From positions 70,567-134,566 of the forward strand of contig CAYGXQ010000001.1 in assembly GCA_964354025.1 (NCBI GenBank): DNA of 64,000 nt. Direction: 5' to 3'. Shown one piece after another: positions 3,772 to 52,916 of the stretch. A model generated the notes under the pieces. The model had not been told where the DNA came from, did not search any database, and worked only from the letters and a program-made list of their open reading frames with translations. Source of the stretch: an uncultured Gammaproteobacteria bacterium. GTDB taxonomy: Bacteria; Patescibacteriota; Microgenomatia; 2-02-FULL-39-11. Each line of letters opens with the position of its first letter. Positions within the stretch are counted from its first letter, which is position 1. The position numbers and the translations under genes are program-made.

Positions 3772-3785
3772 ATCTTCAAACTAAA

Positions 3786-11848: not shown

Positions 11849-12238
11849 TCACCATGAATTTATAATTGGAGTAACAGGAGATTTTATATTTTGTTGGAAA
11901 AAAAGAGATTTTTCTGATAAAAACGCGTATATTATAAACATATCAAGAAGTAGCGGAATAATTAAGAACAATGAGAAAGAGAAGATAAATGACAGGATAT
12001 TACCGATAGTGGTAAGAGTAATAGTTACTACTCCTGCGTACCAACTCCATTTTTTATGTCTTCTGATTGCAGAACCCAGGAAAAAAGAATAAATTCCTAA
12101 AATTAGTGCTATAAAACCCTGCCAGATTTGGCTGAGACTATCTACTTGACCACCACTAAAAAGTAATGGAAACAATACCATTACAATAAAAGAGAAAATA
12201 AATATCGGAGCTACAATTATAAACAGTAAAAAATACAC
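11849..12238 (-). CDS. small polytopic membrane protein, hypothetical
   Basis: 129 aa, about four hydrophobic helices. The predicted start is a GTG inside the flanking palindrome, so the true start is uncertain. Confidence 0.35.
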   Translation of the reverse strand: MYFLLFIIVAPIFIFSFIVMVLFPLLFSGGQVDSLSQIWQGFIALILGIYSFFLGSAIRRHKKWSWYAGVVTITLTTIGNILSFIFSFSLFLIIPLLLDMFIIYAFLSEKSLFFQQNIKSPVTPIINSW

Positions 12239-13008: not shown

Positions 13009-13047
13009 GGTGTTGAAAAAAGGGTAGTTGGATGGTATAGTGAAGTC

Positions 13048-22066: not shown

Positions 22067-25063
22067 ATGGATCAAAAGAAGTTAAATAAGGAACAGCTTG
22101 AGGCGATCCGTCACTGGAAAGGCCCGCTTCTGGTGATTGCCGGCGCGGGGACGGGTAAAACAACGGTTATAACCGAGCGGATCAAATGGCTGATTGCCGA
22201 AGGCCTGGCCAAACCAGCCGAAATTCTGGCTTTGACTTTTACCGATAAAGCGGCTCGGGAAATGGAAGAACGGGTTGACCGGGCGCTTCCTTACGGTTAT
22301 ACCCAAATGTGGATTACCACTTTTCATTCATTTGGGGAGCGGGTTTTACGGCAGGAAGCGATCCAGATAGGTTTGAATCCGGGATACCGGCTCATGGCTG
22401 AGGCGGAGAGTATCATTTTTTTCCGCAAAAACCTCTTTAAATTTAACCTGAATTATTTCCGGCCAATGGGAAATCCGAACAAGTTTATTTCCGGTATGCT
22501 GCAGCATTTTACCAGGTTTAAAGATGAAGACATATCACCTAAAGAATATTTTAATTGGGCGAAATTAAACAATGAAACAACCCGCCAGCCGGCGAGGCAG
22601 GTGAAACAATTGAACAATGAGGAAAAAACTATTGAGAGTGAAAAATATATGGAACTGTCTGATGCTTTTCAAAAGTATGAAGAACTGAAAGTCAAAGAAG
22701 GTTTGATGGATTTTTCCGACCTGATAACTAACACTCTAAATCTTTTCCGGTTAAGGAAAAATATTTTGAAAAATTATCAGGAGCAGTTTAAGTATGTCTT
22801 GATTGATGAATTCCAGGACACAAATTTTGCCCAAAATGAACTGGCGGTTCTTCTGGCCGGAAACAGAAAAAACATAACGGTCGTCGGGGACGATGATCAG
22901 GCGATTTACCGATGGCGCGGCGCGGCTGTTTCCAATATTATCCAATTCCGGCAAAAATTCCCGGAGGCAAAGCCGGTGGTTTTGACGAAAAATTACCGTT
23001 CCACCACTGAAATTCTTGACCGGTCATATGACCTTATCCAAAACAACAATCCAGACCGGTTGGAAGTAAAAGAGAAAATTAATAAAAAACTAGAAAGCCA
23101 AAGAGGGATAAAAGGAGAAAAAATAGAATTGATTTATGAAAAGAGAGTGGAAGATGAAGCGGAAAAAGTAGCTAAACAAATTACAAATTATAAATTACAA
23201 ATTACAAATGACGAAGGGAAAGAATTATACAGTTGGAAAGATTTTGCCATTTTGGTTCGGGCCAACAGTCAGGCAGAACCGTTTGCCAGGGCACTATCCC
23301 GGGCCGGTATCCCTCACCAGTTTTTAGGACCGGGCATGCTTTTTAGGCAGTCTGAAGTCAAAGACCTGATCGCTTACCTTAAATTACTCGACGACTTCAC
23401 TGATTCGGTGGCCTTTTTCCGGGTTGTCACAATGCCGGTTTTTGGGATAAACACCCGGGATATTTATGCCGTCAATAATTTTGCCAAAAGAGTCGGGCTT
23501 TCCTTATTTGAAGCAGTTGAGGTGGTGGTGGCGTTTTTCTTAGGCGATGAAGGACATTGGAGCCGGATGAAAAATTACCAGAATTACCTGCCGTATACAG
23601 GCGAAACTACCAAAGAAAAACTGACCAAGATAATGAAAATGATCAACCGGCATTTGGATTTGGCCAGAAAAGAAACCGCCGGTCAGGTTCTCTACTACTT
23701 TCTGGAAGACAGCGGCATTTTGAAAGAACTGGTTGAGTACAAGACGGTCAAAGAGGAAAAGACCGCCTTAAATATCTCGAAATTTTTCGACAAGCTGAAG
23801 ACTTTTGAGACGGAACACGAAGAAGCAAATGTAGCGGCGGTGGTTGATTGGATTGAAATGGCGATGGAACTGGGTGAAAGTCCCCTGGCGGCGGATACTG
23901 ACTGGTCACAAAATGACGCGGTAAATATCCTGACAGTCCATTCGGCTAAAGGATTGGAGTTTCCGGTGGTCTTTTTAGTCAATCTGGTTAACCAGCGTTT
24001 TCCGACAGTTGAGCGGCATGAACAAATTCCCATCCCTGATGAGCTGGTGAAGGAGATATTGCCGGAAGGGGATTATCATCTGGAGGAGGAAAGACGGCTG
24101 TTTTACGTAGGTATGACCAGGGCCCGCGACCGGCTGATTTTGACCGCGGCCAATTTCTACGGAGAGGGCAAAAGAGAAAGGAAGATCTCGCAGTTTGTGA
24201 TGGAAACGTTGGGAGAGAAGAACATCAATAATTTAACAATTCAACCCTTCGACTTCGCTCAGGGTAAGCAATTGACTCTTTTAGAATGGAAAAAAACTGA
24301 AGAATTACCGGCCAAAACTATTAAACAACCCATCGAATATCTTTCTTATTCCCAAATTGAGAGTTTCACGACCTGTCCGCTGCAGTATAAATACCGCTAT
24401 ATCATCAGAATTCCGGCCCCTCCTTCGGCCGCCGGCTCTTTCGGAACATCCATCCATCTGACTTTGCAGAAATTTTACGAGCGGGTTAAAAGAGGCGAGC
24501 GGCCGCAAAAAGAGGATTTATTGCAGATATTGGATGAGGTCTGGCTGCCGGTCGGTTACGGTTCGAAACAATATGAAGAGAAAATGAAGACCAGAGGCCG
24601 CGACATGCTTCAGGCTTTTTTTGAGAAATTTTACGATCCCGACAAAAAGCCAAAAAGCCTGGAGCAGATTTTTAAGATAAAGCTGACACCGACTCTTAAA
24701 ATCGGCGGCAAAATCGACCGGGTGGATGAGACGCCTGACGGAAAGTTGGAAATTATCGATTACAAAACCGGCAAACGTCCCACCGATAAGGCCATCGCCG
24801 AAAACCTGCAGATGACGGTTTACGCGCTGGCCGCCTGCGACTCCGGTATTTACAACAGACGGCCGGAAGAAGTGGTTCTTTCTTTTTATTTTTTTGACGC
24901 CCGGGAGAAAGTAACTTCGACTAGGACAAAAGAACAGTTGGAAGAAGCCAAGAAAAAACTCCTGGAAAAAGCCCAAGATATTGCATCAAGCGATTTCTCT
25001 CCAAAAGTGGGCAAATGGTGCGATTTTTGCGATTTCCGCCTCATCTGTGAAGCCTGGCAATAA
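22067..25063 (+). CDS. UvrD/PcrA-family helicase fused to a C-terminal PD-(D/E)xK (RecB/Cas4-type) nuclease domain with Cys cluster
   Basis: Walker A GAGTGKTT, DEFQDT, VTLTKNYRS, C-terminal YSQIESFTTCPLQYKYRY...IDYKTGK...CDFCDFRLICEAW. Two in-frame repeat insertions at 23175-23212 and 24243-24264. Confidence 0.85.
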   Translation: MDQKKLNKEQLEAIRHWKGPLLVIAGAGTGKTTVITERIKWLIAEGLAKPAEILALTFTDKAAREMEERVDRALPYGYTQMWITTFHSFGERVLRQEAIQIGLNPGYRLMAEAESIIFFRKNLFKFNLNYFRPMGNPNKFISGMLQHFTRFKDEDISPKEYFNWAKLNNETTRQPARQVKQLNNEEKTIESEKYMELSDAFQKYEELKVKEGLMDFSDLITNTLNLFRLRKNILKNYQEQFKYVLIDEFQDTNFAQNELAVLLAGNRKNITVVGDDDQAIYRWRGAAVSNIIQFRQKFPEAKPVVLTKNYRSTTEILDRSYDLIQNNNPDRLEVKEKINKKLESQRGIKGEKIELIYEKRVEDEAEKVAKQITNYKLQITNDEGKELYSWKDFAILVRANSQAEPFARALSRAGIPHQFLGPGMLFRQSEVKDLIAYLKLLDDFTDSVAFFRVVTMPVFGINTRDIYAVNNFAKRVGLSLFEAVEVVVAFFLGDEGHWSRMKNYQNYLPYTGETTKEKLTKIMKMINRHLDLARKETAGQVLYYFLEDSGILKELVEYKTVKEEKTALNISKFFDKLKTFETEHEEANVAAVVDWIEMAMELGESPLAADTDWSQNDAVNILTVHSAKGLEFPVVFLVNLVNQRFPTVERHEQIPIPDELVKEILPEGDYHLEEERRLFYVGMTRARDRLILTAANFYGEGKRERKISQFVMETLGEKNINNLTIQPFDFAQGKQLTLLEWKKTEELPAKTIKQPIEYLSYSQIESFTTCPLQYKYRYIIRIPAPPSAAGSFGTSIHLTLQKFYERVKRGERPQKEDLLQILDEVWLPVGYGSKQYEEKMKTRGRDMLQAFFEKFYDPDKKPKSLEQIFKIKLTPTLKIGGKIDRVDETPDGKLEIIDYKTGKRPTDKAIAENLQMTVYALAACDSGIYNRRPEEVVLSFYFFDAREKVTSTRTKEQLEEAKKKLLEKAQDIASSDFSPKVGKWCDFCDFRLICEAWQ

Positions 25064-38463: not shown

Positions 38464-39144
38464 ATGAAATACTTAATAGCAAACTGGAAATCCAACAAAA
38501 ACAGCCGGGAAGTGGAGATTTGGTTTTCCCAAATGAAGAAAAAATTTACGGACAATCCGGCCGTAAAAATCGACCGGCTGGAAATCGTTATCTGTCCGCC
38601 ATATCTTTATTTACCCCAAGCGGCGAAATTGATTAGTAAATATCAGCTACCTCTGAAATTGGGCACTCAGGACGTCTCACCTTTCCCTGCCGGAGCTTAT
38701 ACCGGAGCCGTCACCGCCCGGATGATTGCCGAATACGCTGCTTATACTATCATCGGCCACTCGGAAAGAAGAAAGTATTTTAAGGAAGATGAGGTTCAAC
38801 TTTCAGCCAAAGTAATCATGGCCAAAGATGAAGAATTAACTCCGGTTTATTGCATCGCCAACAAACAAAACCAGATTCCGGAAGAAGTGACCATTGTCGC
38901 TTACGAACCGGTAGAGGCTATCGGCAGCGGTCAACCGGAAACGCCGGAGAAAGCTTCGGAAATGGCTAATTTTTTGAAAAAACAAAACAGCCAGATCAAA
39001 AATATCCTTTATGGTGGCAGTGTTAAGCCCGGAAATATCAACTCCTACTTAAACGCATCCGGAATCGACGGGGTATTGGTCGGCGGCGCCAGTATGATTG
39101 TTGAGTCTTTTTGGGAGATGATCGTCAATGCTTCATCCGTTTAA
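38464..39144 (+). CDS. tpiA: triosephosphate isomerase
   Basis: ANWKSNKN, IIGHSERRKYF, AYEPVEAIGSG, GGSV. Confidence 0.85.
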   Translation: MKYLIANWKSNKNSREVEIWFSQMKKKFTDNPAVKIDRLEIVICPPYLYLPQAAKLISKYQLPLKLGTQDVSPFPAGAYTGAVTARMIAEYAAYTIIGHSERRKYFKEDEVQLSAKVIMAKDEELTPVYCIANKQNQIPEEVTIVAYEPVEAIGSGQPETPEKASEMANFLKKQNSQIKNILYGGSVKPGNINSYLNASGIDGVLVGGASMIVESFWEMIVNASSV

Positions 39145-40222
39145 GAGAAAATTGATTAAATTCAAGCGAATTCTCCTACCCACTTTGATCGTGGGAGTTT
39201 TTTTTGTGGCGATAATCATTTTAGTGCGGTTTTTTGCCCCTTATTATAACTTCGCCAGAGAAAATAATTTATCGTTCTCTTTAATCCAAAGTCTGGTTTT
39301 TGATAAAAAACCAGATTTGAAAGAATACAAAGGCAGGACAAACGTAGTCCTTTTGGGAATTTCCGGCGGCAGCCATGAAGGCGGAGATCTGACCGATACG
39401 ATCATTTTTACCAGCACGGATTTTGCCAAAAAAGACGTCGTGGTTGTCTCCGTACCAAGAGATGTTTGGCTACCGTCTTTGAAAGACAGGATCAATTCCG
39501 CTTATCATTACGGTGAAGAAAAAAAGCCGGGAGGGGGTTTGATTTTGGCCAAAGCGGCTATTGAGGAAGTTCTGGGACAGCCGGTGCAATACGGTTTGAT
39601 GATAAATTTTTCCGGGTTTGAGAAAGTGATTGATTTGATTGGCGGAGTCGATATTGAGGTGGAGAAATCATTTACGGATAAACTTTATCCGGTTGAAGGG
39701 AAAGAAAACGATACTTGCGGTAGCGACAAAACATACGCCTGCCGTTACGAAACACTGGTTTTTGAAAAAGGGAGGCAACATATGGACGGTAAACTGGCTC
39801 TGAAGTATGTTCGCAGCCGCCACGCCGAAGGGGAAGAGGGGACGGATTTTGCCAGAGGCAGACGGCAGCAGCAGGTGATTTTGGCCGTGAAAAATAAAAT
39901 TATTACCCAAAAACTTTGGAAAGATTTTAACTTAATGAAAAAATTGTATGAGGTTTTTATGCAAAACGTGGCCACTGATTTGAACTGGTCGGAGAAGATC
40001 CTTTTAGGGAAATTTTTCCTGACTATGCCGGAAGGTGTTGTCCGTCAACTGGTTTTGGATACCGGCGATGAAAAACAAAAGAGAAAAGGCTTTCTGGTCA
40101 ATCCGCCGGCCTGGCAGTATAAAGACATGTGGGTGCTGACTCCCCGAAGCGGAGATTTCACTGAAATCCAAAAATATATTTCCTGTCAACTGGAATCCCC
40201 AAGTTGTGAGATAAAACCGTAA
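39128..40222 (+). CDS. LytR-CpsA-Psr (LCP) family cell-wall glycopolymer ligase
   Basis: N-terminal TM; TNVVLLGISGG...DLTDTIIF...VVSVPRDVWLP...YGLMINFSGF. Confidence 0.75.
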   Translation: MLHPFKRKLIKFKRILLPTLIVGVFFVAIIILVRFFAPYYNFARENNLSFSLIQSLVFDKKPDLKEYKGRTNVVLLGISGGSHEGGDLTDTIIFTSTDFAKKDVVVVSVPRDVWLPSLKDRINSAYHYGEEKKPGGGLILAKAAIEEVLGQPVQYGLMINFSGFEKVIDLIGGVDIEVEKSFTDKLYPVEGKENDTCGSDKTYACRYETLVFEKGRQHMDGKLALKYVRSRHAEGEEGTDFARGRRQQQVILAVKNKIITQKLWKDFNLMKKLYEVFMQNVATDLNWSEKILLGKFFLTMPEGVVRQLVLDTGDEKQKRKGFLVNPPAWQYKDMWVLTPRSGDFTEIQKYISCQLESPSCEIKP

Positions 40223-40235
40223 AAATATTGTTCCC

Positions 40236-40448
40236 TTATACGGTTATCATTCTTCTTTCGATCTTTTGAGGAAGAGTATGATATGCACGGTTAAGTATCT
40301 CCTTAGCGTCCATAATCTCGAGAGCGACCGGTTGGCGGAATTTATTGAAATGCACGATGATATTGTCCTTCTTTTCCGCGAAGGCAATGGGATCGTCAGA
40401 TAATTCCATCATAAGTATATCGACGTCTTTACTGTATTTTAATTTCAT
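40236..40448 (-). CDS. DUF2283-like small protein (orphan TA-associated component)
   Basis: MKLKYSKDVDILMMELSD...IVHFNKFRQPVALEIMDAKE matches the DUF2283 pattern (YDKEADALYIKLSD...IVGIEILNA). Confidence 0.5.
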   Translation of the reverse strand: MKLKYSKDVDILMMELSDDPIAFAEKKDNIIVHFNKFRQPVALEIMDAKEILNRAYHTLPQKIERRMITV

Positions 40449-40654
40449 ATCTTCCTTTTAGACAATTTATCAAAATATTGCTTTAAGTTCAATAGAAGGA
40501 TCTTTCGCTTCTTCAGATCGGAAAAAATATATGATTTTATTGCTTAATTGTTCTATTGTTAAATTGTAAATTTTTCGTCTTCCCTCAATCCGTAAATAAT
40601 ATTTAGTCTCGTTAGGTTGTCTTACGTCTGTGTAAGTTATATACTAATACTATT

Positions 40655-40978
40655 GTGAACGTAATTAACAGTGAAACAGATCAAATAATCGAAAGAATAA
40701 TTCAACACTGCCAACCGGAAAAAATTATTCTTTTTGGTTCAGTCGCCAGAAATGAGATTAAAGAGAACTCTGACATCGACCTTTTAATCATCAAGGAAAG
40801 TGATAAAAAGAGGCCGTTCAGAGTAAAAGAAATATTCAAAGCTTTAAGAGGCATGGTGAGAAATTATCCTTTAGATGCAATTGTATATACGCCTGAAGAA
40901 TTGGATAAACGTATTCTGATAGGAGATTACTTTATAAAAAGAATATTGAGTGAGGGAAAGACTGTCTATGGCGACTGA
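40655..40978 (+). CDS. minimal nucleotidyltransferase (MNT) antitoxin-type protein
   Basis: ILFGSVARNEIKENSDIDLLII (GS...DxD). Confidence 0.75.
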   Translation: MNVINSETDQIIERIIQHCQPEKIILFGSVARNEIKENSDIDLLIIKESDKKRPFRVKEIFKALRGMVRNYPLDAIVYTPEELDKRILIGDYFIKRILSEGKTVYGD

Positions 40979-41366
40979 CAAACAAGTTCTTGCCAAGGAG
41001 TGGTTTGATGCGGCGATAAGCGATTACCGGTATGCGGAAATAGGTCTTAAGGAAAATCAGATTTATCCCCAGATTGCCTTTCTGTCTCAACAGGTGGCGG
41101 AGAAACTTCTTAAAGGATTTCTGATACTTCATGACGTTGAACCTCCAAGAATTCATGAATTACCTAAGCTTCTGGATGAATGTGTGAAAATAGATTCTTC
41201 TCTTGATTCTCTTCGTGACGCTTGTGAGTCGTTAACAGGGTTTTATACGGAAACCCGTTATCCACCGGATATCACCGATTATACAAAAGAAGAAATAACG
41301 GAAGCTTTCAATATGGCAAAACTCATCAAAGAGGAAATCGAGTCCATCCAAAACAAACCTCAATAA
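40968..41366 (+). CDS. HEPN-domain protein (toxin partner of the MNT)
   Basis: 4-nt overlap with the MNT gene; conserved TRYPP (R-x4-6-H-like HEPN region) and helical pattern. Confidence 0.65.
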   Translation: MATDKQVLAKEWFDAAISDYRYAEIGLKENQIYPQIAFLSQQVAEKLLKGFLILHDVEPPRIHELPKLLDECVKIDSSLDSLRDACESLTGFYTETRYPPDITDYTKEEITEAFNMAKLIKEEIESIQNKPQ

Positions 41367-41519
41367 TCTTATTTTTTCGCCTCTTCAGACCGGAAATAAT
41401 TCATGAGTTCATGGTTCAATTGTTACATTGTTAAATTGCTAAATTGTTAATTATTCGTCTTCCCTCAATCCTTGAATAGTATTTTTCGAAGACAGATGGC
41501 CGATGGCGGATGACAGATT

Positions 41520-41625
41520 TTTCCGTCCTCTGTATTCTGTCTTCCGATTTCTGTCCTCCATTTTCTGCTTTCAGTCTTCCGTATTCTGTCTTCTGACTTC
41601 CGTCCTCCAACTTCCGTCTTCGATA
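41520..41625. repeat. pyrimidine-rich tandem decamer array (consensus about TTCYGTCYTCC); complement strand GGA-rich
   Basis: About 9-10 imperfect units read directly in the sequence: ttctgtcctcc / attttctgct / ttcagtcttcc / gtattctgtcttc / tgacttccgtcctcc / aacttccgtcttcg. Confidence 0.6.
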
Positions 41626-41711
41626 AGTTTCAGGACTGGGGGAAACCTAAGGAGGTTTGCGCATCAGCGCTAAAGATAGTCAGCGGGGTAGGCTGGTAGA
41701 AATACAACTAT

Positions 41712-41990
41712 TTAACTGAATTGAACACGAAGCGGTGTGTTTAAAACATCAGCCAGGCGTTTAAGAAATGATAAGGTAGGCATTGTTCTGGCGTTTTCCA
41801 CCCGGGAAATAACTGACTGTTTGGTTTTGAGTCGTTTGGCTAGTTCTTTCTGGGTAAAACCGCGTTTTACTCTTGCCATAATCAGAGCACGGGCAATCTC
41901 GTATTCCAGCCGGTTGTCTTCAACGGCTTTACGAATCTCAGGATTTTTTAAAAGTCTTTTTTTATGGGTTTCCCAATCAGTGATGTGCAT
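41712..41990 (-). CDS. higA: XRE-family HTH antitoxin (HigA-like)
   Basis: GFTQKELAKRLKTKQSVISRVEN; lies downstream of the toxin gene on the same strand. Confidence 0.7.
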   Translation of the reverse strand: MHITDWETHKKRLLKNPEIRKAVEDNRLEYEIARALIMARVKRGFTQKELAKRLKTKQSVISRVENARTMPTLSFLKRLADVLNTPLRVQFS

Positions 41991-42030
41991 ATAAAAGATA
42001 ATATCACAATTTTGCTATATTGTCCAGCGG

Positions 42031-42387
42031 TTAAATCAGTGTCCGTGTTTTATATTCAGCTAATCTACTTAAGGCGATTTTAATTTCCTTTATTGGAGTT
42101 TTTTGTTTTTTCTTTTTGAAAGCATGCAACAGTAAAAAAGTGGATTCTTTCACGGTCACGTAGAAAATACGGAGGTTGTCTTCTCCTAATATCCTTATTT
42201 CCCAAAGCGGTGTTCCGGTTAATTTTTTCACGTGGGGTTCCCGAATAGTCAGTCCGAACTCGGTTAACAACTGAAATGTGTTATAAACCTTGGAGATTGC
42301 TTTAGGTGGTAAACTTTCGATAAATTCATAAATTGGTGATGTTCCGGTTAAAGGAGAATAATATTTTATTTTCCAAGTGCCTGTCAT
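42031..42387 (-). CDS. higB: RelE/ParE-superfamily toxin, phage Gp49-like (HigB-type)
   Basis: PLWEIRILGEDNLRIFY...LLLHAFKKKKQKTP matches the Gp49-like toxin family pattern; toxin-first gene order. Confidence 0.65.
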   Translation of the reverse strand: MTGTWKIKYYSPLTGTSPIYEFIESLPPKAISKVYNTFQLLTEFGLTIREPHVKKLTGTPLWEIRILGEDNLRIFYVTVKESTFLLLHAFKKKKQKTPIKEIKIALSRLAEYKTRTLI

Positions 42388-42756
42388 TAATAATAGTATA
42401 TAATATATTTTTTCGCTTCTTCAGAGCGTAAAAAAGTATTTTCTCTGTTTTCGTCCTGCCTTCAGTTTATTGAAGGAATGGACTCATCAGTACCGATTCC
42501 ATCGGTAAAACAGAGAAATTCAGATGGTAAAGGTTATGGTAGGAAGGTAATCCCGAAAAGGGATACAAATTAGAACCTAAGGTTCTAAAACCCCTTCCGG
42601 AAAATACCCAGACACCATAAACCAGCAAGAAAGGCTCATGCAGACAAAGCCGCACAATTTCTCGATATCCAATCGGATACCGATCATGCCTTTCTGCTCC
42701 CTCTGAATTCTCTTGAAGAAAAGATCGATTAGTCAAGGCCGCCAAGCCTTTGACTT

Positions 42757-43221
42757 TTACGGGTACCGGATGGGCTCGCAACCACCCCAGCCAGGGTTGT
42801 ATCTCCAGCCAGGCCCACAGTCGGTTTCAGCTGCACGGCCGAAATGGGCGAGTTCATAGAGCTCATGCCCGTTGGCGTCAATGACGACCAGGCGCCATGA
42901 CCCAGGAGCCGGTGTGTTCGTTCCTTGCTCGAAGACCGTCCGGTACAACTCCGGGTGAGCGAATCTTGCTTCGCGCATGTCATCGACTTCGTCATTGGGA
43001 ACGTACTCCCATTTCACCCGTGATGCAGCGAGTTCGGTATCGTTGCCCTGCACGTAGAACTTTGTTCTGTCCGGGTACCAGGCGCCGTTCACAACGGTGC
43101 CGGTTTTCGCGCCATTCTCGGTCAAGAAAGTGACATTGGATGCCGGCGCGGCGCTCACGTTCACGACGTTCATCAGCAACAAAGCGATCGTCGCGATGTA
43201 AACAATCTTGTAACGGTTCAC
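42757..43221 (-). CDS. small secreted protein, high-GC, probably foreign
   Basis: Signal peptide MNRYKIVYIATIALLLMNVVNVSAAPA; coding GC about 58% against a window background of about 40%. Confidence 0.5.
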   Translation of the reverse strand: MNRYKIVYIATIALLLMNVVNVSAAPASNVTFLTENGAKTGTVVNGAWYPDRTKFYVQGNDTELAASRVKWEYVPNDEVDDMREARFAHPELYRTVFEQGTNTPAPGSWRLVVIDANGHELYELAHFGRAAETDCGPGWRYNPGWGGCEPIRYP

Positions 43222-43578
43222 GGTTTACTCCTTTTTATCTTCTCTTGTACTTGTTTTTCGATAGACACTTCAGCTTGGCGGCGAGACTTGAATATAATAA
43301 GCAAAATTATACCCACGTCTAGCCGTCAAGCCTGATATCATCTTGATCTTTTCTTCATTTTTAAGGTGCGATAAAAATAACCTTTTATCCTGCGCAATTG
43401 CCGGATAAAGATTATTTTTACACGATTTTTCTCTGTAACTCGTGTTTCCTCAGCCCACAAACAAAAAGCGTTTCTGGGCTCAGGAAGTGAGGTAAATTTA
43501 GGGAAGGTTTGGTTGTCAGCGGGGTAGGCTGGCGACATTTCCCTCCTTTGGGTTTACCTCTAGCTTCTCTTGGGTAAT

Positions 43579-45336
43579 TTAGTGGCCTGGGGCCGCTGGG
43601 CGAACCGGCATGGGTTGCGTTGGTCCGGGAACAGTGGGGGTGACGGCGGCGCTCGCCGTGACGCCCGTTGCCTGGATCGTGAAGGGCCCGTACAGATTGT
43701 TTTCTTGCTGGCCCAAAATTTCATGCCTTTCGAGCTCGCCATTATACCAGTTGACCCGGTCGTCTGTATCGACCCGATAGTAGCCAATGCCGGAAAGGTT
43801 CGGATCAACGTTCGAGTAGTAGACCCAATAGTTGCAACCCTGTGACTCACTGGCCACAGTGCTGCATGTGATAGTCTCACCCGGTTTGAGTGAGACTGTG
43901 GTGCCGTTTGGCCACCAGTTGCTAAAAGCCACACCCCGACCAGTCCAGCGGGACCCATCCCAACCAGGGGAAAGATCTTGCCAGAAATCTCCGGGGCCGG
44001 GGACGCGAGGCGGGTTGACATACCCGTCAATCCACCATGAGCCAGTTGTCGGCGCCGTTCCGATGTTAGCAATAATGACCATTGCGTAATTGTTTCTAAT
44101 GGTGCCGGATACCACAACTAGGTCTGGGGCGTAAAGGAAATCGCGTTGTATGACTGGTAGGTACGTTCGGCAGGCGTCCATGCGGACTTGAGCCGCATCC
44201 ATAGCGCTCACGTTTTGTCCGTTTGCCCGGCCGGTGCTCGTGACGGTGTTAGTGAAACTTGCCGTTACGTTGGTCGTGCAGATATAGCCGTTGCTTGCGC
44301 CGACTACTAGCGTCCCGATGGAGCGACTGCAGGTTCCGACCGTGCCCGTCACCGTCACGTTAGACAGATCCAGGTCCCCTGTGTTAGTGACTGCGATAGT
44401 GAAAGTTGCGGATCGGTTGTAGCAGACGGTTTTGTTTTCCGGTTCGATGGTGATGGCGATTGCTGCGGTTTTGATCGTGAACATCGCCGTGACAACCTTG
44501 TTTGCCGTCATCATGACCGTCGTCGGGTTGGCCGTACCCGTGATTGCGCCGGTCCAATTGACGAACGTCGAGGTTATACTCGGCGACGCTGTCAACGTGA
44601 CGACCGTACCAGCCTGGTAGCTGGTCTGGTCCGGATTCTTCGTCACCGTGCCCTGGCCGACTACGTTGGTCGTCAGTTGGTAATTGCAGATGACCGAAAT
44701 CATCTCTTGGACGAGCTGGTCGAGCTCATCTGGCGACGAGGCATTTCCCCAGCTTCCATCGCCAGCCTCGGCGATTTCAGCCAGATAGCCTTCACGGGTC
44801 GAGTCGAGATCCACACCAATGGCGAAGACCCTGAGCCCCGCGAGTTGTGGATCGGCCTGTGCAACCTCGATCGCGGAAACTAGTTGATTGGTTTGAGTAA
44901 TGGTGATTTCCGCATCCGTTACCAACAGCACAACCGGGTCTTCTGCTCCGAGGAGCTGGTTCTTGGCCATAACGAAGGCAGGCACGATCTCTGTGCCGCC
45001 GTTGGCCGTTAGCGCGTTGACCGCGGCGATGACGTCCGTATAGACAGGAGTCAAGGCCAGGTCTACCCGAGGCGTGTCAGCGAAGCTAACCACCCCTTGG
45101 CGGGACCCGGGATTGCTGACTTGCGGTGTTACATGGGCGACCGCACCCTTCAACGCGTCCAGCCGGGTGCCGGAGCCGAAAGCGGTCCCCATCGAGCCCG
45201 ATCGGTCGAGTTGGTACATCAAGTTGACCGTCCGCGAGCAACCCAGCGTCATCGCTTGGTTCGTGATGAAACCAAGCGTCAATAAGGTGGCCAAAAAAAC
45301 CAGGCCCAAAACTTGCGCGAGTCTTCCGCGTTTCAT
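43579..45336 (-). CDS. secreted von Willebrand factor A (VWA) domain protein with C-terminal beta-rich repeats, high-GC
   Basis: Signal peptide; MIDAS DRSGSMG; T...D pattern; Thr/Val/Asn-rich Ig-like repeats; GC about 57%. Confidence 0.65.
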   Translation of the reverse strand: MKRGRLAQVLGLVFLATLLTLGFITNQAMTLGCSRTVNLMYQLDRSGSMGTAFGSGTRLDALKGAVAHVTPQVSNPGSRQGVVSFADTPRVDLALTPVYTDVIAAVNALTANGGTEIVPAFVMAKNQLLGAEDPVVLLVTDAEITITQTNQLVSAIEVAQADPQLAGLRVFAIGVDLDSTREGYLAEIAEAGDGSWGNASSPDELDQLVQEMISVICNYQLTTNVVGQGTVTKNPDQTSYQAGTVVTLTASPSITSTFVNWTGAITGTANPTTVMMTANKVVTAMFTIKTAAIAITIEPENKTVCYNRSATFTIAVTNTGDLDLSNVTVTGTVGTCSRSIGTLVVGASNGYICTTNVTASFTNTVTSTGRANGQNVSAMDAAQVRMDACRTYLPVIQRDFLYAPDLVVVSGTIRNNYAMVIIANIGTAPTTGSWWIDGYVNPPRVPGPGDFWQDLSPGWDGSRWTGRGVAFSNWWPNGTTVSLKPGETITCSTVASESQGCNYWVYYSNVDPNLSGIGYYRVDTDDRVNWYNGELERHEILGQQENNLYGPFTIQATGVTASAAVTPTVPGPTQPMPVRPAAPGH

Positions 45337-45435
45337 GATTTTTCCTCCATTTTGATTTTGTTTTTGTCAGCCTACCCCAGCTGGTGCTGAAGATAAATTG
45401 CTTTACTGCGGATTCAAAAAGAGTAAAATAAAATT

Positions 45436-45639
45436 ATGGTTAAGATTACCTCAAAGAAAATCGAAGTTTTCAGCGATCTGTTTACCGATCTTGCCGCGGG
45501 TTGTTTTGGGACGCTATTGATCTTTCCCGGCGTCATCGGCATAAAAACTCTTCTTGATTTGATACTCCTATTGATCATCAATCTTCCATTTGGTATATTA
45601 TGTTTGTTGATAGCATTAAAATTAAAAGAAAAAATATGA
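45436..45639 (+). CDS. small hydrophobic peptide, hypothetical (a second 35-aa hydrophobic ORF follows at 45638-45745)
   Basis: 67 aa with one or two TM segments; weak call. Confidence 0.25.
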   Translation: MVKITSKKIEVFSDLFTDLAAGCFGTLLIFPGVIGIKTLLDLILLLIINLPFGILCLLIALKLKEKI

Positions 45640-46224
45640 CTCCATCTATTACTTCAACGTCAATCGGTATGGGCATTGCTTTAGGTCTTTTAATTATTGC
45701 CTTTTTACTCTTCTGGAATACCTTCTACAAAAAAACCAGTAAGTAGCAGGTTGATTTTATCTTCAATACCAGCAGGGTAGAACTGACTCAAAAGTCCGCC
45801 TACGCATGAAGCTTCGGCGAGACAAGGGAGGAAAATACCCCTAATAATAAGATTATTACCCCAGTACCAGTCCTGATTTAACCTGAGGACGGTACGGGGT
45901 TGCGACTCCGTTTATTAATGGCGGAGTCTTACCCAAGGAAGCTTGTTAAAGAGCCCCTCGCTTCGCTCGGGGTAAACCCTTCTATTTGACTTAGGCTACC
46001 CTGAACTAAGCGAAGAAAGCCGTTATTAGTTGTCCAAATTTCAGTAATCAGAAGCAAATATCTGAACTTGAAAAAGACAACTTCAAACTTCTTCAGTTTG
46101 CATGCGGATTAATTAACCTATAGTTAAATATCCACAGCCGTTGTATTTATACAACTTTCTATGACAAAATCTTGATCATAAGAGGAGAAAAAGTATCAAA
46201 AATAGGGGATTTTTGACAAAATAC

Positions 46225-46253
46225 TTGACAAACTGTTTAAATTATAGGATAAT
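46225..46253 (+). promoter_or_regulatory. sigma70-like promoter (TTGACA-17-GATAAT) 8 nt upstream of the ATPase-wHTH gene
   Basis: ttgaca 46225-46230, gataat 46248-46253; a second TTGACA at 46213; essentially leaderless start at 46262. Confidence 0.5.
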
Positions 46254-46261
46254 ATCTCAAC

Positions 46262-47539
46262 ATGGATACGAACCAACAGATCCAAAATCAGTACTTCAAT
46301 TTTTATCGGGATAATCTGGAAAAGACAGCCCAAGCGATTCAAAAAGGCAAAGTGTTAATTTTTGTGGGGATGAATTCGATCGGCAAAACTTTGCTGATCA
46401 ACCAGATAACTTCTTCCAGATTCAAGCAGGAATACCTGTCAAATCAAAAAGTACAGACAGTATTTTTGGAATATAAAGACAAGAATCCGCCCACCCCGGC
46501 TCAACTTTATAAATATTGGCTTACCGAAACAGCTAAGATTCGGGGATATAATTTGCCTTTGAATGAAGAATTTAATGACTATTCTTTTTACTATCACCTG
46601 ACGGAAATGACCAAGAATTTAGGGGAAGAGAAACTGGTCTATATTCTCCAAGACACCCAAAAATTGCTTGACCAGGGAGAAGCTTTTTTTCGCAGTCTGA
46701 TCTACCTCCACCGCTTCACTTACGGAAAAGTTTCCTATCTGGTCTTTTCCGAACCGCAAATCCTGGATTGCAAAAACACCTGGGTACAAAGATTTGTGCA
46801 AGACCTTACCAACCATAAATTTATTTTTCTTAAATTATTGGATAAAGCCACGACAATTACTGACATTCAAAGGGAAGAACAGTTCCTGAAAGCTGATCTT
46901 AAACACAGATGGCCTTTGGTGATCAAGTATTCAGGCGGGCTGCATGGAGTAATCGGCGCCCTTTGTTATTTTTTGAAAAAATTTCCGGAAGTGAAAGATA
47001 TCAGACAACTGCGGAAAATTGTCGAAGATGACAAAATGTGTGAGTATTGGTTTAAGGATATTTTTGACAGTCTTCCGCTTGAGTCACTTCGAATTTTAAA
47101 AGAAGTAGTCATGCATAAAGATAACTGGAAAAAATACAACAGGGAGATTTTTGGGGAATACCTGGTCAATTTAGGATTTTTGAAAAATGACGGCACTTTC
47201 CGTCATCCACTGATGCTTTTGTCCCTCAAAAAATACGTGATAGGAGAAAGAAAAAACATCCAGGAACTTACATTGGTTAAAAATGCATTTTTTCTAAACG
47301 GTGCTAAAATAAAATTAACCAAAAGAGAGTTTGCGGTTTTACAGGTTTTGCATAAAAATAAGGGTAAGACGGTGACGACTGACCAGTTAGCCGAAGCTTT
47401 ATGGAAAGACAATCCGGAGGCATTCTCTCTTTGGGCGATCGCGCAGACAGTCCGGCGCTTGAGAAAAAAACTGGCTTTTTATTTTATCCCCCCTCAAACC
47501 ATTAAAAGCATCAGGGGAGAAGGGTATATGATGAGCTAA
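46262..47539 (+). CDS. P-loop ATPase with C-terminal OmpR/PhoB-type winged-helix DNA-binding domain
   Basis: Walker A VGMNSIGKT, Walker B-like VYILQD, C-terminal LTKREFAVLQVLHKNKGKTVTTDQLAEALW...VRRLRKKL...IKSIRGEGY (trans_reg_C pattern). Confidence 0.6.
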   Translation: MDTNQQIQNQYFNFYRDNLEKTAQAIQKGKVLIFVGMNSIGKTLLINQITSSRFKQEYLSNQKVQTVFLEYKDKNPPTPAQLYKYWLTETAKIRGYNLPLNEEFNDYSFYYHLTEMTKNLGEEKLVYILQDTQKLLDQGEAFFRSLIYLHRFTYGKVSYLVFSEPQILDCKNTWVQRFVQDLTNHKFIFLKLLDKATTITDIQREEQFLKADLKHRWPLVIKYSGGLHGVIGALCYFLKKFPEVKDIRQLRKIVEDDKMCEYWFKDIFDSLPLESLRILKEVVMHKDNWKKYNREIFGEYLVNLGFLKNDGTFRHPLMLLSLKKYVIGERKNIQELTLVKNAFFLNGAKIKLTKREFAVLQVLHKNKGKTVTTDQLAEALWKDNPEAFSLWAIAQTVRRLRKKLAFYFIPPQTIKSIRGEGYMMS

Positions 47540-47540
47540 T

Positions 47541-49856
47541 ATGATAGGAGAAACACCAACTGTTTTACCATCTATGTGGGCAAGAATAAGACAAAGACAG
47601 GCAGAAGCAAATGAATTGCAGGGGGATGCCAGAGTAGGAGCGCAAATAACTATTGATAGCTTAACGAGACGTATGCCCAATTTGCCGGAAGAAAAAAAAC
47701 AACTATGTATAGATTATCATCGTGTAGCCGAACCGGTTCTTACTGATTTGCGATGGGCGCCACGTATTACGACGAGAGATGATCTATTCAATACTTTTTT
47801 AAGAAGACGTATCGATGCCTGTCTTGATAATGGGGAAGATCGGGTATATATAGAGATGGCTTTTGGACAACTTAAGTCTTATATAGAACAGACACGCAAT
47901 GAAGTCGTTGATTTCCTTGAGGGATTAGTTCATAAAATGACTGCTACTAAAAATGCGGAAATGGTAGTGATAAATAATGAGGAGGTAAGTTTCAGCGAAA
48001 CCTTTTTAAGAGATTATTTGAGAGATTTTTTTAACAAGTATCCTTTGCAATGGAATGATAGTCAGGTTGATTTAAAGGATAGAATTTCGGCAGTCATGTA
48101 CGCCATCGATGATAATACCAAAGCCAAAGAGGGTGAACGTTATCTCCCGATTATTAAAGTAGGACAAAGGTTTGAGTTTGATATCCCAGAGGAATTCCAA
48201 TATGTTTTGGCCTTAAAAATTCTTGAACAAACTGATTTGACGGATGAAAGAACATCTCCACTATTATATACAAAATATATTAACTGGGATTTCTCGTCAG
48301 AAGCAGTCTTGGCAAAATTGGATGCGGTAAATTGTTTCAAGAATGGGAGATATAAGGATTTCCGTTTTTTATTATCAGCGATAGGAGAAATTATTTATGA
48401 TGATAGGAGTTATAGAGCGACGTTGATCGATTTTCTGACCGGAGTGACAGAAAGGATTGGAGGGAGAGATCCAGTCGAGATGCGCAAAGGATTTGCTTTT
48501 GCCAGAACAATTTTAGATGATTTTGCCAAGTATTACGTTAAGGACAGTAGGGAATCTATAGAATACAGGTTTTTGGAACAGACAAGAGAAGCATTGAACC
48601 AGCGCGAAAGAGAATATTTTTATCCAGACAGAAAACCGGTTGTTCCGGCTGATGTTATGGAGCAAGCGGTTTCGGCTATGGAAAGGAGAGGACCGTCTGC
48701 GATGAATGAAGCCATCTGGTTGGGAATGGTGCCGGAAGGATCAGTGGGAGCGCTTTTCCCGCCGGAGATGAGAGAGCAGATAGAACTAATAATCCAATAC
48801 GCTTTGAAACGGCGGAAAGCGGAAGCAGCAATCATTCCTGGGACTGCTGATGTTTATGGAGCAGATAGTGAGGAAGCGATTTGGATAATGAAACTAAAAC
48901 AGGCTTTTATTGGAGCAATGTTCGCTAAGGATGACGGATATGATATTCATCTACGAAGAGACAATGAGCCGACTTTGCAGGTAACAGAAGGTCCGACTGA
49001 TGCCTCCGAACGGGCGCTATTGATGATTCTGAATGTTATTAACGAAATAGTTAAGATAAAAGCTACAGATAACAGACTAGCTTTAGGTGTTTCTGAAATG
49101 ATGACTGCTGTTTATTATGGTGACGTGGCGAGTAGAAGTCTTTGTTGGGACAAAGAGAGAAAAAGATATGTCTGGGAAAATCCGAAATTTCTCGAACAGT
49201 ATGAGAAAGCAGAACGGGCAATTGCCGGTATTTTTGCCTGGTATCCGCTTTACGCTGGCGAAGTAACTGGATTTCCCGAATCAGGCGCTTTATGGGCTGA
49301 GGCTAACCGTGACTATGGCTATTTGATCTTAGTGGCGAATGATATGGAGGATATCTTGATAAGAGGAAAATATAAGAAACATGAGATGGGTAATGATATC
49401 GGTCAGAAGCCCTCTATTTACCAATGGCTTTTCATGCATCTTGAATTACCGGAAGATGATTCTTTATCTGCTTCCCTGGTTGCTGATCAAGAAATTGTCC
49501 GGAAAGCTTATGATGATATCGGCCGCAAAAGACACGCCGGAGAAAAACTAAACGATGTTGATTATCAGCAAATTGCTCAAGCTTGTGAAGCTCTAACGAA
49601 ATATGCACCAAGAATTATTCCCCAGATGCAAATCATGCTAGAACCGTTTTACACCAGAGCAAGAGAGTCTTTAGCTGAAGCATTTAAAAAATTGCCTTCG
49701 ATGGATAGACGGAATACCACTCAGCAGATAATTTTTGAAAATATGATTGATGGAGTCTGGCAGAAGATCTGCGGATTTTCTGGAAGCGGGGAAGAAGCAG
49801 CTATTGAACAATTATTTCAAGTAAGAGAAAAAGTAAAAGAGGAAGTTCTAGAGTAA
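47541..49856 (+). CDS. large soluble protein of unknown function, translationally coupled to the ATPase-wHTH gene
   Basis: 771 aa uninterrupted ORF starting 1 nt after the upstream TAA; no TM or recognisable motif. Confidence 0.5.
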   Translation: MIGETPTVLPSMWARIRQRQAEANELQGDARVGAQITIDSLTRRMPNLPEEKKQLCIDYHRVAEPVLTDLRWAPRITTRDDLFNTFLRRRIDACLDNGEDRVYIEMAFGQLKSYIEQTRNEVVDFLEGLVHKMTATKNAEMVVINNEEVSFSETFLRDYLRDFFNKYPLQWNDSQVDLKDRISAVMYAIDDNTKAKEGERYLPIIKVGQRFEFDIPEEFQYVLALKILEQTDLTDERTSPLLYTKYINWDFSSEAVLAKLDAVNCFKNGRYKDFRFLLSAIGEIIYDDRSYRATLIDFLTGVTERIGGRDPVEMRKGFAFARTILDDFAKYYVKDSRESIEYRFLEQTREALNQREREYFYPDRKPVVPADVMEQAVSAMERRGPSAMNEAIWLGMVPEGSVGALFPPEMREQIELIIQYALKRRKAEAAIIPGTADVYGADSEEAIWIMKLKQAFIGAMFAKDDGYDIHLRRDNEPTLQVTEGPTDASERALLMILNVINEIVKIKATDNRLALGVSEMMTAVYYGDVASRSLCWDKERKRYVWENPKFLEQYEKAERAIAGIFAWYPLYAGEVTGFPESGALWAEANRDYGYLILVANDMEDILIRGKYKKHEMGNDIGQKPSIYQWLFMHLELPEDDSLSASLVADQEIVRKAYDDIGRKRHAGEKLNDVDYQQIAQACEALTKYAPRIIPQMQIMLEPFYTRARESLAEAFKKLPSMDRRNTTQQIIFENMIDGVWQKICGFSGSGEEAAIEQLFQVREKVKEEVLE

Positions 49857-49970
49857 ATGTTACGATTTTTTCGATCAGATTACTGCCGGGAATTTATGCT
49901 TGAAGTAATATATCATGCTAAAAAGAGCCTGTCAAGCACTATAGGCTTAGTATAATTTACCACTAGATTG

Positions 49971-50026
49971 GAAGATCCCTCAACGAAGTTTATCCTGAGC
50001 GAAGTCGAAGGGTTCGGGATGACAGA
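49971..50026. repeat. family-1 structured repeat, half copy
   Basis: ggaagatccctcaacgaagtttatcctgagcgaagtcgaagggttcgggatgacag; contains the same 22-mer found in frame in tsaD and in the helicase. Confidence 0.65.
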
Positions 50027-50033
50027 TACAATT

Positions 50034-51476
50034 TTACGGAAACAGGAGGAGTTTGGTGCCTAAGAAAAGCAAGGCGGCGGAGGCGGCAAACAGGATGGTA
50101 GTAGGCCCGGTTGAGCCTGATCGGGGAGCGCCGACGGGCGGTGAGGTTGGTTGCGGTTGCAGAGTAGGCGCAATTACAGTCGGTTGAACCGCGGTCGGTT
50201 GAGGAGGGCTGGTGGGGGCCGGTGTAGCTGAAGGAACGGTCGGCGCGGTGGTTGGGATGGTTGTGGGAGACGGAAGGCAAACTGAAGGAGCACAGGTAAC
50301 GGTTATCAGTTCTCCCGATAAGGTGGCCTCGCCCAAGACGCTTTCCCCGCTTTTGAGAACATAAAAAGTTTTCTTGACAGTAACTAATTTCCCGGAAGAA
50401 TCATATGATTGGATAGTGACTTCATGCAAGCCCGGTTCAAGGTTTTTCGGCGGGGTCCAGGACCAGGTACCGTCTTTGGCGGTTTTTATTTTCCCCGTCT
50501 GCGGATCAGATTTAACCGTAATGAGAACCTGACTGCCCGGCCGGGCCACTCCCCGCAGTTTGGGTTTCTTATCCGGAGTATAATCACGGTCGTTTTGGGG
50601 GAAAAGGATATCGATCTCCGCGGGCTTTTCCGGTTTTTTCGTCATGGTGGGAAAAATGGTGACCGCGGTTTTCGCCCCCAAAATATTTTGATTGTTCAGT
50701 TTAGCCAGTTGGTCTTTTTTGGAAAGCAAATTGATAAAATTGTAAGAATTGCCGATGACCATGTCGGGAATTGCCAGGTTTTGTTTGATGGATTTCAGAT
50801 CAATGACGGCTGAAGAAACTCCATCAGAAGAATTTTTCACCGTTATTTGGATAAGATCACTGTCGGATAAATTCGGCCGTGAAAGAAGGTCTCCGGTTCG
50901 TAAATTATTAAAAGGGATAACCCAAAGCCCAAGTTTATCGGTTTTGCCGGACAAGATGGAATTATTGCTCACCGTCAAGTAGACGATAGCACCTTCTTGA
51001 GGTTTGCCGTTTTTATCTACGATGACGCCGTGAGTCGGCGGCAAGTCGAGCGTCGAAGACAATTTCGAAGCGGTTTTTTGGGAAAAAACCGGGCATGCCC
51101 GTTCTTCTTTACAGGAATTTGTCCCGCTGATGACTTTCACCGAATAGTTCGTGTCTTCGCTTAAATTTTTCACTGTTACATAATGAGTATTTCTTGGGCG
51201 CGGCAGATTGTCACTGTCGCCGTCATCCAAAAAGGTTAGCTTTTGCACGTCCGAAGAAACAACAACAGAACCGGTCGTTTCTTGGGCCGTCAGCCAGGAA
51301 ACGGTTAAGGAACTATCAGAGACATTGGTAAATTGGACATCCACCGGTACATTCGACGGATTAGCCATTGAGGTAAACGACTGGGGTCGGCGGTCCAAAT
51401 AAACACCAATGCCTAAGCCTCCGAGGATAAGGAAAAGGGCTATAATTGTCGGAATCTTTTTTTCTTTGCGGTACAT
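50034..51476 (-). CDS. surface protein with FN3-like and Ig-like domains, Pro/Thr linker and C-terminal TM anchor
   Basis: N-terminal TM; PVDVQFTNVSDSSLTVSWLT...TNYSVKV (FN3-like); Ig-like segment; PT-rich stretch; C-terminal ILFAASAALLFLGTKLLLFP. Confidence 0.5.
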   Translation of the reverse strand: MYRKEKKIPTIIALFLILGGLGIGVYLDRRPQSFTSMANPSNVPVDVQFTNVSDSSLTVSWLTAQETTGSVVVSSDVQKLTFLDDGDSDNLPRPRNTHYVTVKNLSEDTNYSVKVISGTNSCKEERACPVFSQKTASKLSSTLDLPPTHGVIVDKNGKPQEGAIVYLTVSNNSILSGKTDKLGLWVIPFNNLRTGDLLSRPNLSDSDLIQITVKNSSDGVSSAVIDLKSIKQNLAIPDMVIGNSYNFINLLSKKDQLAKLNNQNILGAKTAVTIFPTMTKKPEKPAEIDILFPQNDRDYTPDKKPKLRGVARPGSQVLITVKSDPQTGKIKTAKDGTWSWTPPKNLEPGLHEVTIQSYDSSGKLVTVKKTFYVLKSGESVLGEATLSGELITVTCAPSVCLPSPTTIPTTAPTVPSATPAPTSPPQPTAVQPTVIAPTLQPQPTSPPVGAPRSGSTGPTTILFAASAALLFLGTKLLLFP

Positions 51477-52836: not shown

Positions 52837-52893
52837 ACAATTATAAATTACAAATTCTAAATTATAAATTAAATTAAAAATTCAATAATTAAG
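52837..52893. repeat. AT-rich ttacaaatt/ttataaatt repeat, intergenic copy
   Basis: acaattataaattacaaattctaaattataaattaaattaaaaattcaataattaag; same family as the in-frame copies at 8697-8753 and 23175-23212. Confidence 0.6.
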
Positions 52894-52916
52894 AATGAGA
52901 GAGATCTTTAACTAAA

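Follow-up and report, generated by a model that had tools for sequence, protein, structure and literature searches.

Acinetobacter plasmids carry dif modules, which are bounded by 28-bp pdif XerC/XerD sites and very often contain toxin–antitoxin (TA) pairs; a pdif site is built from two 11-bp arms, one for XerC and one for XerD, on either side of a 6-bp spacer, the XerD arm carrying conserved TTATGTTAAAT; the sites alternate in orientation, and those that recombine have identical or near-identical central spacers (PMC13141974). Gene-cassette systems appear to be little described so far in bacteria of the Candidate Phyla Radiation (CPR), which have small genomes; a full-text literature search on integrons and attC in Patescibacteria gave no matching description and only three resistome surveys. 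Here we analyse a 64-kb stretch of the chromosome of an uncultured member of the Microgenomatia (contig CAYGXQ010000001.1, positions 70,567 to 134,566; the whole of this stretch is referred to as the window), in which copies of a 30-bp motif stand at the edges of TA modules, between the gene for an LCP protein and that for a Big_13 surface protein. We propose tentatively, at a little under even probability, that at this position the TA modules of a strain-variable island are joined at the motif, and that the motif is the core site of a recombinase encoded elsewhere.

The motif TTTCGCYTCTTCAGANCG has three matches in the window (40503-40520, 41375-41392 and 42411-42428), all of them on the plus strand, without mismatches and within 2 kb, while 0.02-0.10 chance matches are expected from shuffled sequence. 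There was no fourth match in the 64 kb, even when 2-3 mismatches or a degenerate pattern were allowed, and a position-weight scan built from six variants of the site gave no further copy in the window. When the 30-mers are defined as centred on TCTTCAGA, copy 1 (W1, 40499-40528, plus strand) reads GATCTTTCGCT TCTTCAGA TCGGAAAAAAT, copy 2 (W2, 41371-41400, plus strand) reads ATTTTTTCGCC TCTTCAGA CCGGAAATAAT and copy 3 (W3, 42407-42436, plus strand) reads ATTTTTTCGCT TCTTCAGA GCGTAAAAAAG. Copy 1 lies 50 nt upstream of the start of a DUF2283 gene (40236-40448, minus strand; Pfam PF10049, E = 4e-9), for which no partner toxin was found, there being no second open reading frame (ORF) between DUF2283 and copy 1. 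Copy 2 lies 5 nt after the HEPN stop codon of an MNT-HEPN operon (40655-41366, plus strand; Pfam NTP_transf_2 (MNT) at 40655-40978 and HEPN at 40968-41366), and copy 3 lies 20 nt upstream of the higB start, over the predicted higB -35 region, at the edge of a higBA operon (41712-42387, minus strand; Pfam HTH_3 (HigA-like) at 41712-41990 and Gp49/HigB at 42031-42387). An earlier note on this DNA had named these gene families (DUF2283 without a partner, MNT-HEPN and HigB/HigA) and had placed a repeat at three module boundaries. Pfam agrees with the families, three exact plus-strand copies were found within about 5 nt of the coordinates given in the note, and within the 64 kb the copies lie only at the island.

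In order to compare the locus between strains, we gathered contigs of relatives along three routes: L016, L017, L018 and L063 were reached via the 90% identity cluster of the LCP protein, L006 via a 95%-identical HEPN protein, and L024, L033 and L041 were added by a metagenome scan. The core genes of the first four are 85-90% identical to those of the window. The site reads ATTTTCTCGTT TCTTCAGA TGGGAAAAAAG in L017 and TAATTTCCGCC TCTTCAGA CCGGAAAAAAG in L018, and in L016 the left side is as in L018 and is followed by CCGGAAACTCC. All eight centre columns (TCTTCAGA) are invariant across the six variants and 15 of the 22 arm columns vary (hypergeometric P = 0.0011), in an alignment that comprises only those six variants, from about five strains. 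The arms form imperfect inverted repeats, TTTYCG(N) and (N)CGGAAA, and those of L018, TTTCCG and CGGAAA, pair perfectly when read from the sequence. The site has polarity because its centre is asymmetric, and every copy, in the window and in the relatives, keeps one orientation whatever the direction in which the adjacent genes point; a degenerate inverted copy abuts the direct site in L018 and, as read from the sequence, in L016/L024. Core sites of tyrosine and serine recombinases are laid out in this way, with inverted arms on either side of a centre that is short, conserved and asymmetric.

The position of the site is consistent relative to the chromosome but not relative to the genes. Each TA module, made up of promoter, genes and stop codon, has one copy at its chromosome-right end, and this holds for the hicBA module found in some of the relatives as well as for MNT-HEPN, higBA and DUF2283. 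The site is 3' of hicBA and MNT-HEPN, but 5' of higBA and DUF2283. It starts immediately after the hicA stop codon in L016, L024 and L018, and 5 nt after the HEPN stop codon in L006, L017, L033 and L041. Among more distant MNT-HEPN loci (L007-L015, 70-76% identity) the motif was found in none, and the nearest non-self homologue of HigB was only 68% identical, so that no second copy of the higBA module was obtained by that route.

It can be seen from the strain comparison that the TA genes belong to a larger variable region. Its left anchor is the LCP gene (LytR_cpsA_psr by Pfam; 39128-40222, plus strand), which is syntenic in all relatives and together with a TIM gene (38464-40222 for the pair, plus strand) lies directly upstream of the TA genes; its right anchor is a conserved fn3/Big_13 surface-protein gene (50034-51476, minus strand; assigned by Pfam and synteny), convergent with LCP. 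In a distant syntenic relative with 54% LCP identity the gene order matches (TPR, FemAB, UvrD through MurJ, GH39), the motif is absent and the LCP and Big_13 stop codons are 5 nt apart, and therefore positions 40223-50033 of the window are an inserted, strain-variable island. The length between LCP and Big_13 is 9.8 kb in the window, about 4 kb in L018, about 1.8 kb in L017 and those 5 nt in the distant relative. The cargo varies likewise. Directly after LCP there is hicB-hicA in L016, L024 and L018, an MNT gene with a HEPN gene that carries an internal deletion in L017, and DUF2283, MNT-HEPN and higBA in the window; L006 has an intact MNT-HEPN further into the island, and L063 has the 3' end of higA some 20 nt beyond the LCP stop codon, judged by a 14-nt exact match. 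The deletion in L017 (11400-11620) removes 205 nt from within HEPN and leaves MNT without an intact partner, a sign of decay.

The comparison also maps one difference to the sites themselves. The sequences of L006 and L017 run colinear with that of the window, starting at the MNT promoter, across HEPN and on into a single site copy, and in these two contigs as well as in L033 and L041 HEPN is followed by a single site and then by the sequence that in the window follows copy 3. This shared segment (42436-42755, no strand assigned) is about 90% identical in L006, L017 and L033, where it comes directly after the single post-HEPN site. It follows from the colinearity through one site that window positions 41375-42410 are a 1,036-bp presence/absence difference, with copy 2 at its left end and copy 3 at its right end; the segment absent from L006 and L017 contains a linker, heptad arrays and higBA. 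Modules also recur with the site in different surroundings, hicBA in two contexts and MNT-HEPN in three. For higBA there are two contexts, and the site copy beside it is seen in the window alone because the L063 contig ends before that point. Since the L016/L024 and L006 contigs overlap over about 165 identical nt, they can be joined into the order LCP, tail (described below), hicBA, site, surface-protein flank fragment, insertion sequence, MNT-HEPN, site and shared segment. At the nucleotide level MNT-HEPN is about 92% identical to L006 and L017 and the shared segment about 90%, compared with about 85% for the adjacent core genes; this greater likeness suggests that TA modules have recently been exchanged between strains. 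The earlier note had seen in the repeats a cassette-like punctuation of TA genes and recombination at a common site. That idea gains from the strain comparison, from a site that bounds four TA modules and from an indel that ends within its copies; the integron version of it found no support, as set out below.

Matches further afield were sought with two patterns. The exact pattern TTTCGCYTCTTCAGANCGNAAA gave three chance-level matches in genome contigs of other taxa, none in viral contigs and none in metagenome contigs, and is too strict because the arms of the relatives differ. A degenerate pattern gave 43 matches in metagenomes, which we estimate to be roughly the chance number for its information content; three were real (L024, L033 and L041), and nearly all of the others lay in long open frames of unrelated organisms. 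In three JGI metagenomes that contain the lineage, true matches to the degenerate pattern occur at the LCP–Big_13 locus only.

The first two copies extend beyond the site, as had been noticed earlier for a segment of about 110 nt: copy 1 extends to 107 nt (40498-40604) and copy 2 to 115 nt (41370-41484), with 88 identical positions over 115 aligned columns and an exact 18-mer, TTCGTCTTCCCTCAATCC, in common. The 8-nt difference in length sits in a (AATTGTTA)n tandem. The linker after copy 1 (40529-40604, plus strand) is an AT-rich (AATTGTTA)n spacer followed by a tail, TTCGTCTTCCCTCAATCC..TATTT, and that after copy 2 (41401-41484, plus strand) is likewise a spacer with (AATTGTTA)n and then the tail. 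Copy 3 and the copies of the relatives have only about 28 bp in common with the other copies. The tail is found again on the left side of modules: in L016 it starts right at the LCP stop codon, ahead of hicBA, and in L018 a degenerate form precedes hicBA. The units therefore look like tail–module–site. Where two such units abut in the window, site, spacer and tail together make up the linker of about 110 nt. We also considered whether the middle of the long repeat is a decayed LCP 3' end left as an integration scar and rejected this, since local alignment against shuffles gave a P of about 0.05 (copy 1) and of 0.66-0.99 (copy 2); homology there is confined to the tail, whose start coincides with the LCP stop codon in L016.

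From these features we infer a site-specific system in which the 30-bp site would be the core site of a recombinase of the tyrosine or serine type, encoded outside the window. Recombination between two direct copies would excise the module between them, and insertion or swapping of a module would come about by the reaction in reverse or by exchange between strains. A number of observations weigh against this proposal. No gene for a tyrosine or serine recombinase was found among the ORFs scanned in the 64-kb window or in the contigs of the relatives, and neither a circular excision product nor an empty junction was observed. The shared ancestry of the six site variants inflates the apparent conservation of the centre, and the restriction of the site to one locus rests on the window together with incomplete metagenome assemblies. 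The unit structure is not uniform either, in that the DUF2283 module has no tail on its left and, in L018, no site follows a heptad piece on the right. Finally, no dedicated enzyme is needed for two 28-bp direct repeats to lose the sequence between them, as RecA-dependent or slipped recombination can do this.

This last point leads to the main rival, which accounts for the indel and which we consider possible, though on balance doubtful. It holds that the repeats are passive, portable homology, that is, leftover intergenic sequence carried along with incoming DNA, and that the modules are stacked, deleted and swapped by ordinary homologous recombination with LCP as its anchor and by unequal crossing-over or slippage at the repeats of 28-110 bp. 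The lack of a recombinase gene nearby fits such a process, as do the general plasticity of a region disrupted by insertion sequences and the mapped indel, which locates the crossover no more closely than a shared stretch of about 28 bp. The 110 nt or so common to copies 1 and 2 are enough for RecA, whereas the roughly 28 bp shared by copy 3 and the copies of the relatives are short for efficient RecA action. Modules that are more alike between strains than the core genes are what transformation followed by recombination predicts. However, passive homology leaves unexplained why the same site lies 0-20 nt from the coding sequence of four unrelated TA modules, and why its 8-bp centre is invariant and its orientation single while the arms drift.

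A different possibility, which we regard as improbable, is that the site serves the expression of each module, as DNA or as RNA, in the manner of an insulator, an RNA hairpin or a binding site for a protein, and that its position at module edges is secondary. The site does lie directly after the stop codons of two operons and over the predicted higB -35 region, and a hairpin is possible: copy 3 folds at -6.1 kcal/mol (z = -3.4), in addition to the perfect pairing of the L018 arms. Against this, copies 1 and 2 fold no better than shuffles (z = 0.6 and 0.2). An intrinsic terminator was rejected, given that on both strands the T-run is 5' and the A-run 3' of the stem, so that no U-tail follows it; a terminator scan did not pick up the site, and the genome uses canonical terminators elsewhere, e.g. 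AAAAAGTCCCGAG..CTCGGGACTTTTT after groEL. A shared TA operator or promoter, which the earlier note had offered as a simpler account of the repeats, is rejected in view of the inconsistent position of the site, downstream of two operons and upstream of two, and of the antitoxins, which come from unrelated families and make a common operator implausible. The MNT-HEPN promoter is moreover outside the repeat: the promoter-like site TTGTCT-17-TATACT (40617-40645, plus strand) ends 9 nt before the start codon, and the same sequence precedes MNT in L006 and L017, both without the long repeat. No promoter-like match is accounted for by the motif; one merely touches the T-run of copy 3.

That the locus is an integrase-less integron array (a cluster of attC sites lacking integron integrases, CALIN), with the 107-115 nt repeats as attC, is very improbable: TA-rich arrays of short cassettes with repeats of about 100 nt do resemble chromosomal integrons, genes with one site at the same end and a content that varies between strains are an integron-type trait found here, and the spacer contains GTTAAAT (which fits GTTRRRY), but no RYYYAAC partner could be read from the sequence, single-stranded folds of both strands of both long repeats were no better than shuffles (z = 0.62, 1.04, -0.05 and -0.01), the long repeats contain no inverted repeats and no R''/R' inverted cores, the two ends of the element are alike as direct and not inverted repeats, and there was no IntI-like gene. 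The two integron hallmarks that the earlier note had proposed to look for are thus both missing from what was scanned, namely attC-like R/L core symmetry and an integron-type integrase; no Phage_integrase or recombinase Pfam match was obtained among non-overlapping ORFs of at least 120 aa across the 64 kb or among the small ORFs of the island.

Three other types of site were tried and rejected. A canonical dif or pdif site does not fit, the arms being TTTYCGYY and NSGKAAAAAA, without TTATG or the XerD-arm consensus (TTATGTTAAAT), and the copies being direct, as compared with Table 1 of PMC13141974. A chromosomal dif site or an integrative mobile element exploiting Xer (IMEX) at the replication terminus finds no sign change of GC skew at the island; the skew is positive on both sides and the cumulative skew climbs through the whole window. 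A dispersed repeat like the repetitive extragenic palindromes (REPs) is at odds with the absence of any copy outside the island in the 64 kb and with the finding that only island copies match in the JGI metagenomes of the lineage. A link to the REP-associated tyrosine transposases (RAYTs) through the Y1_Tnp gene at 12.3 kb was also rejected, since the hairpins that flank this gene are unrelated to the site. The gene itself (12291-12968, 225 aa; IS200-like, possibly RAYT-type) lies within a low-GC patch (12236-13010), has the palindrome ATACACACCWGGTGTGTAT on both flanks and is the sole mobility-type gene in the window.

A second element was found 2 nt from copy 3. Positions 42438-42520 on the minus strand match the type III hammerhead ribozyme family Rfam RF00008 over model positions 1-54 of 54, with 29 bits and E = 0.004 against a gathering score of 48.5 bits, the long stem II keeping the score below gathering. 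The core CUGAUGAG..CGAAA is intact and all three stems pair, with loops closing stems I and II, stem III left open and an NUH cleavage site present. The fold of minimum free energy is the three-way junction, and both strain versions have standard pairs at all 21 modelled positions, one stem I pair (A-U to G-C) and the inner part of stem II having changed in a compensatory way. The ribozyme is conserved in L006, L017 and L033. On the strength of the family match, the fold and the strain comparison we conclude that this is a genuine type III hammerhead, for which self-cleavage is predicted. It occupies one end of the shared segment, with ORF154 on one side and higBA on the other, all on the same strand, and from this position could cut read-through transcripts just upstream of higBA, a role that is speculative. 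No paper came up in a full-text literature search that combined hammerhead ribozymes with 'Candidate Phyla Radiation'. The tails of the linkers were also considered as hammerhead relics and rejected; a search of 40200-42430 with a covariance model of the two ribozyme versions gave no match, also with the filters off. A 79-aa ORF at 42470-42560 is frameshifted in the window and intact in L006 (960-1199), a sign of decay.

The MNT and higB genes share TTATATACTAWTAYTATT immediately before their start codons (40637-40657 and 42385-42403). As the -10-like TATACT ends 7-9 nt from the start, their mRNAs may be leaderless or have very short leaders, a suggestion drawn from the sequence.

The heptad arrays (41488-41631, plus strand) consist of a short purine-rich arm (41488-41517) and then a TTCYGTC array of about 15 units. 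In L018 two inverted heptad arms (TTCYGTC / GACRGAA; 3650-3840 and 4222-4388) flank a four-helix-bundle gene (23S_rRNA_IVP, PF05635), whereas in the window the arms abut with no gene between them, and a further purine-rich arm lies directly after the LCP stop codon in L018 (777-835). The heptad-array unit has the look of a second type of small mobile unit within the island. Between the arrays and higA there is a fragment resembling the 3' flank of a surface-protein gene (41632-41711, plus strand). It contains GTCAGCGGGGTAGGCTGG, which recurs in the window at 41679-41696, 43515-43532 and, inverted, at about 45366-45384; the second of these belongs to a long hairpin (43489-43561) in the 3' flank of the VWA surface-protein gene, and this hairpin region has its homologue at L018 1480-1550. 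The copy at 41679, beside higA, looks like a remnant of the VWA surface-protein flank.

The island also has contents other than the TA modules. A GC-rich block (43-45.4 kb, 51-56% GC) carries a VWA/InlB-B-repeat/DUF11 surface protein, and there are a Trans_reg_C regulator (46262-47539) and a 771-aa ORF without a Pfam match; two short proteins placed in the cluster of the VWA protein turned out to be unrelated sequences. A non-coding block at 45828-46099 is 77% conserved against L018 4435-4666 and contains several hairpin-like palindromes. It may be an unannotated structured RNA, and Rfam gave no match to it at E <= 1. In other strains the island is interrupted by insertion sequences (L024 848-2112, L006 1240-1614, and L033). 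One of them has a 390-aa ORF without a Pfam match, terminal inverted repeats AAAATGTAACGGAA and five near-identical database proteins; the other is IS3-like and lies inside ORF161.

The window as a whole is low-GC chromosome with a gene content typical of CPR bacteria, including FemAB, type IV pilus genes, MurJ, GroEL and an HrcA-GrpE-DnaK-DnaJ cluster, and close homologues carry the names Candidatus Gottesmanbacteria or Microgenomates. No tRNA genes were found in it, and an Rfam search of the window gave no family at or above its own gathering score. AT-rich heptamer tandem arrays, (AAATTAC)n and variants, form a family at 8697-8756, 23176-23209 and 52839-52896, those at 8698 and 52839 being 90% alike.

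Taken further, the proposal of a recombinase core site raises the possibility, which we consider rather unlikely, that the locus is a gene-cassette platform of CPR (Microgenomates) bacteria not described before, comparable in function to integrons and dif modules yet of independent origin, in which small TA or defence modules are captured, stacked and exchanged at a fixed position by way of a site of about 30 bp, unrelated to attC and dif, with inverted arms and an invariant TCTTCAGA centre, itself part of a linker of about 110 nt. A short, defined site with natural presence/absence variants in several public metagenomes would make cassette exchange in an uncultured lineage directly testable. 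Should the repeats be passive homology only, the locus would still be a clean TA hotspot between two core genes.

How does the island compare with systems that are already known? Repetitive extragenic palindromes and their mosaics (REP/BIME) with RAYT proteins (Y1 HUH) share with it short imperfect palindromes just after stop codons, and there is a gene of the Y1_Tnp family in the window; REPs, however, are dispersed in tens to hundreds of copies, whereas the site is found at one locus only. Tandem accretion of integrative elements and defence/TA hotspots resemble it in having a fixed hotspot between core genes, empty in one relative, with variable cargo and direct repeats at the junctions. 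The units of the island differ in that they are only 0.3-1 kb long, have no integrase or mobility genes and are not beside a tRNA gene. Chromosomal integrons (e.g. the Vibrio superintegrons) are alike in their stacked short modules, many of them TA modules with their own promoters, in the repeated site after each module and in a content that varies between strains. They differ in that the island has no IntI or attI in the scanned data, that its repeat lacks the folded R''/L''-L'/R' palindrome, that its conserved unit is about 30 bp long with a direct-repeat-like tail, and that it lies between convergent core genes in a CPR bacterium. The dif modules with which we began are also small, often TA modules, bounded by arm–spacer–arm sites of about 28 bp and shuffled, lost or replaced between relatives, and the invariant centre TCTTCAGA parallels the shared central spacer of pdif. 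In contrast to them, the site of the island has no XerD arm and its copies are all direct where pdif sites alternate, and the island is chromosomal where dif modules are plasmid-borne. If our proposal is true, the site would add a third, unrelated type beside the integron and dif-module paradigms.

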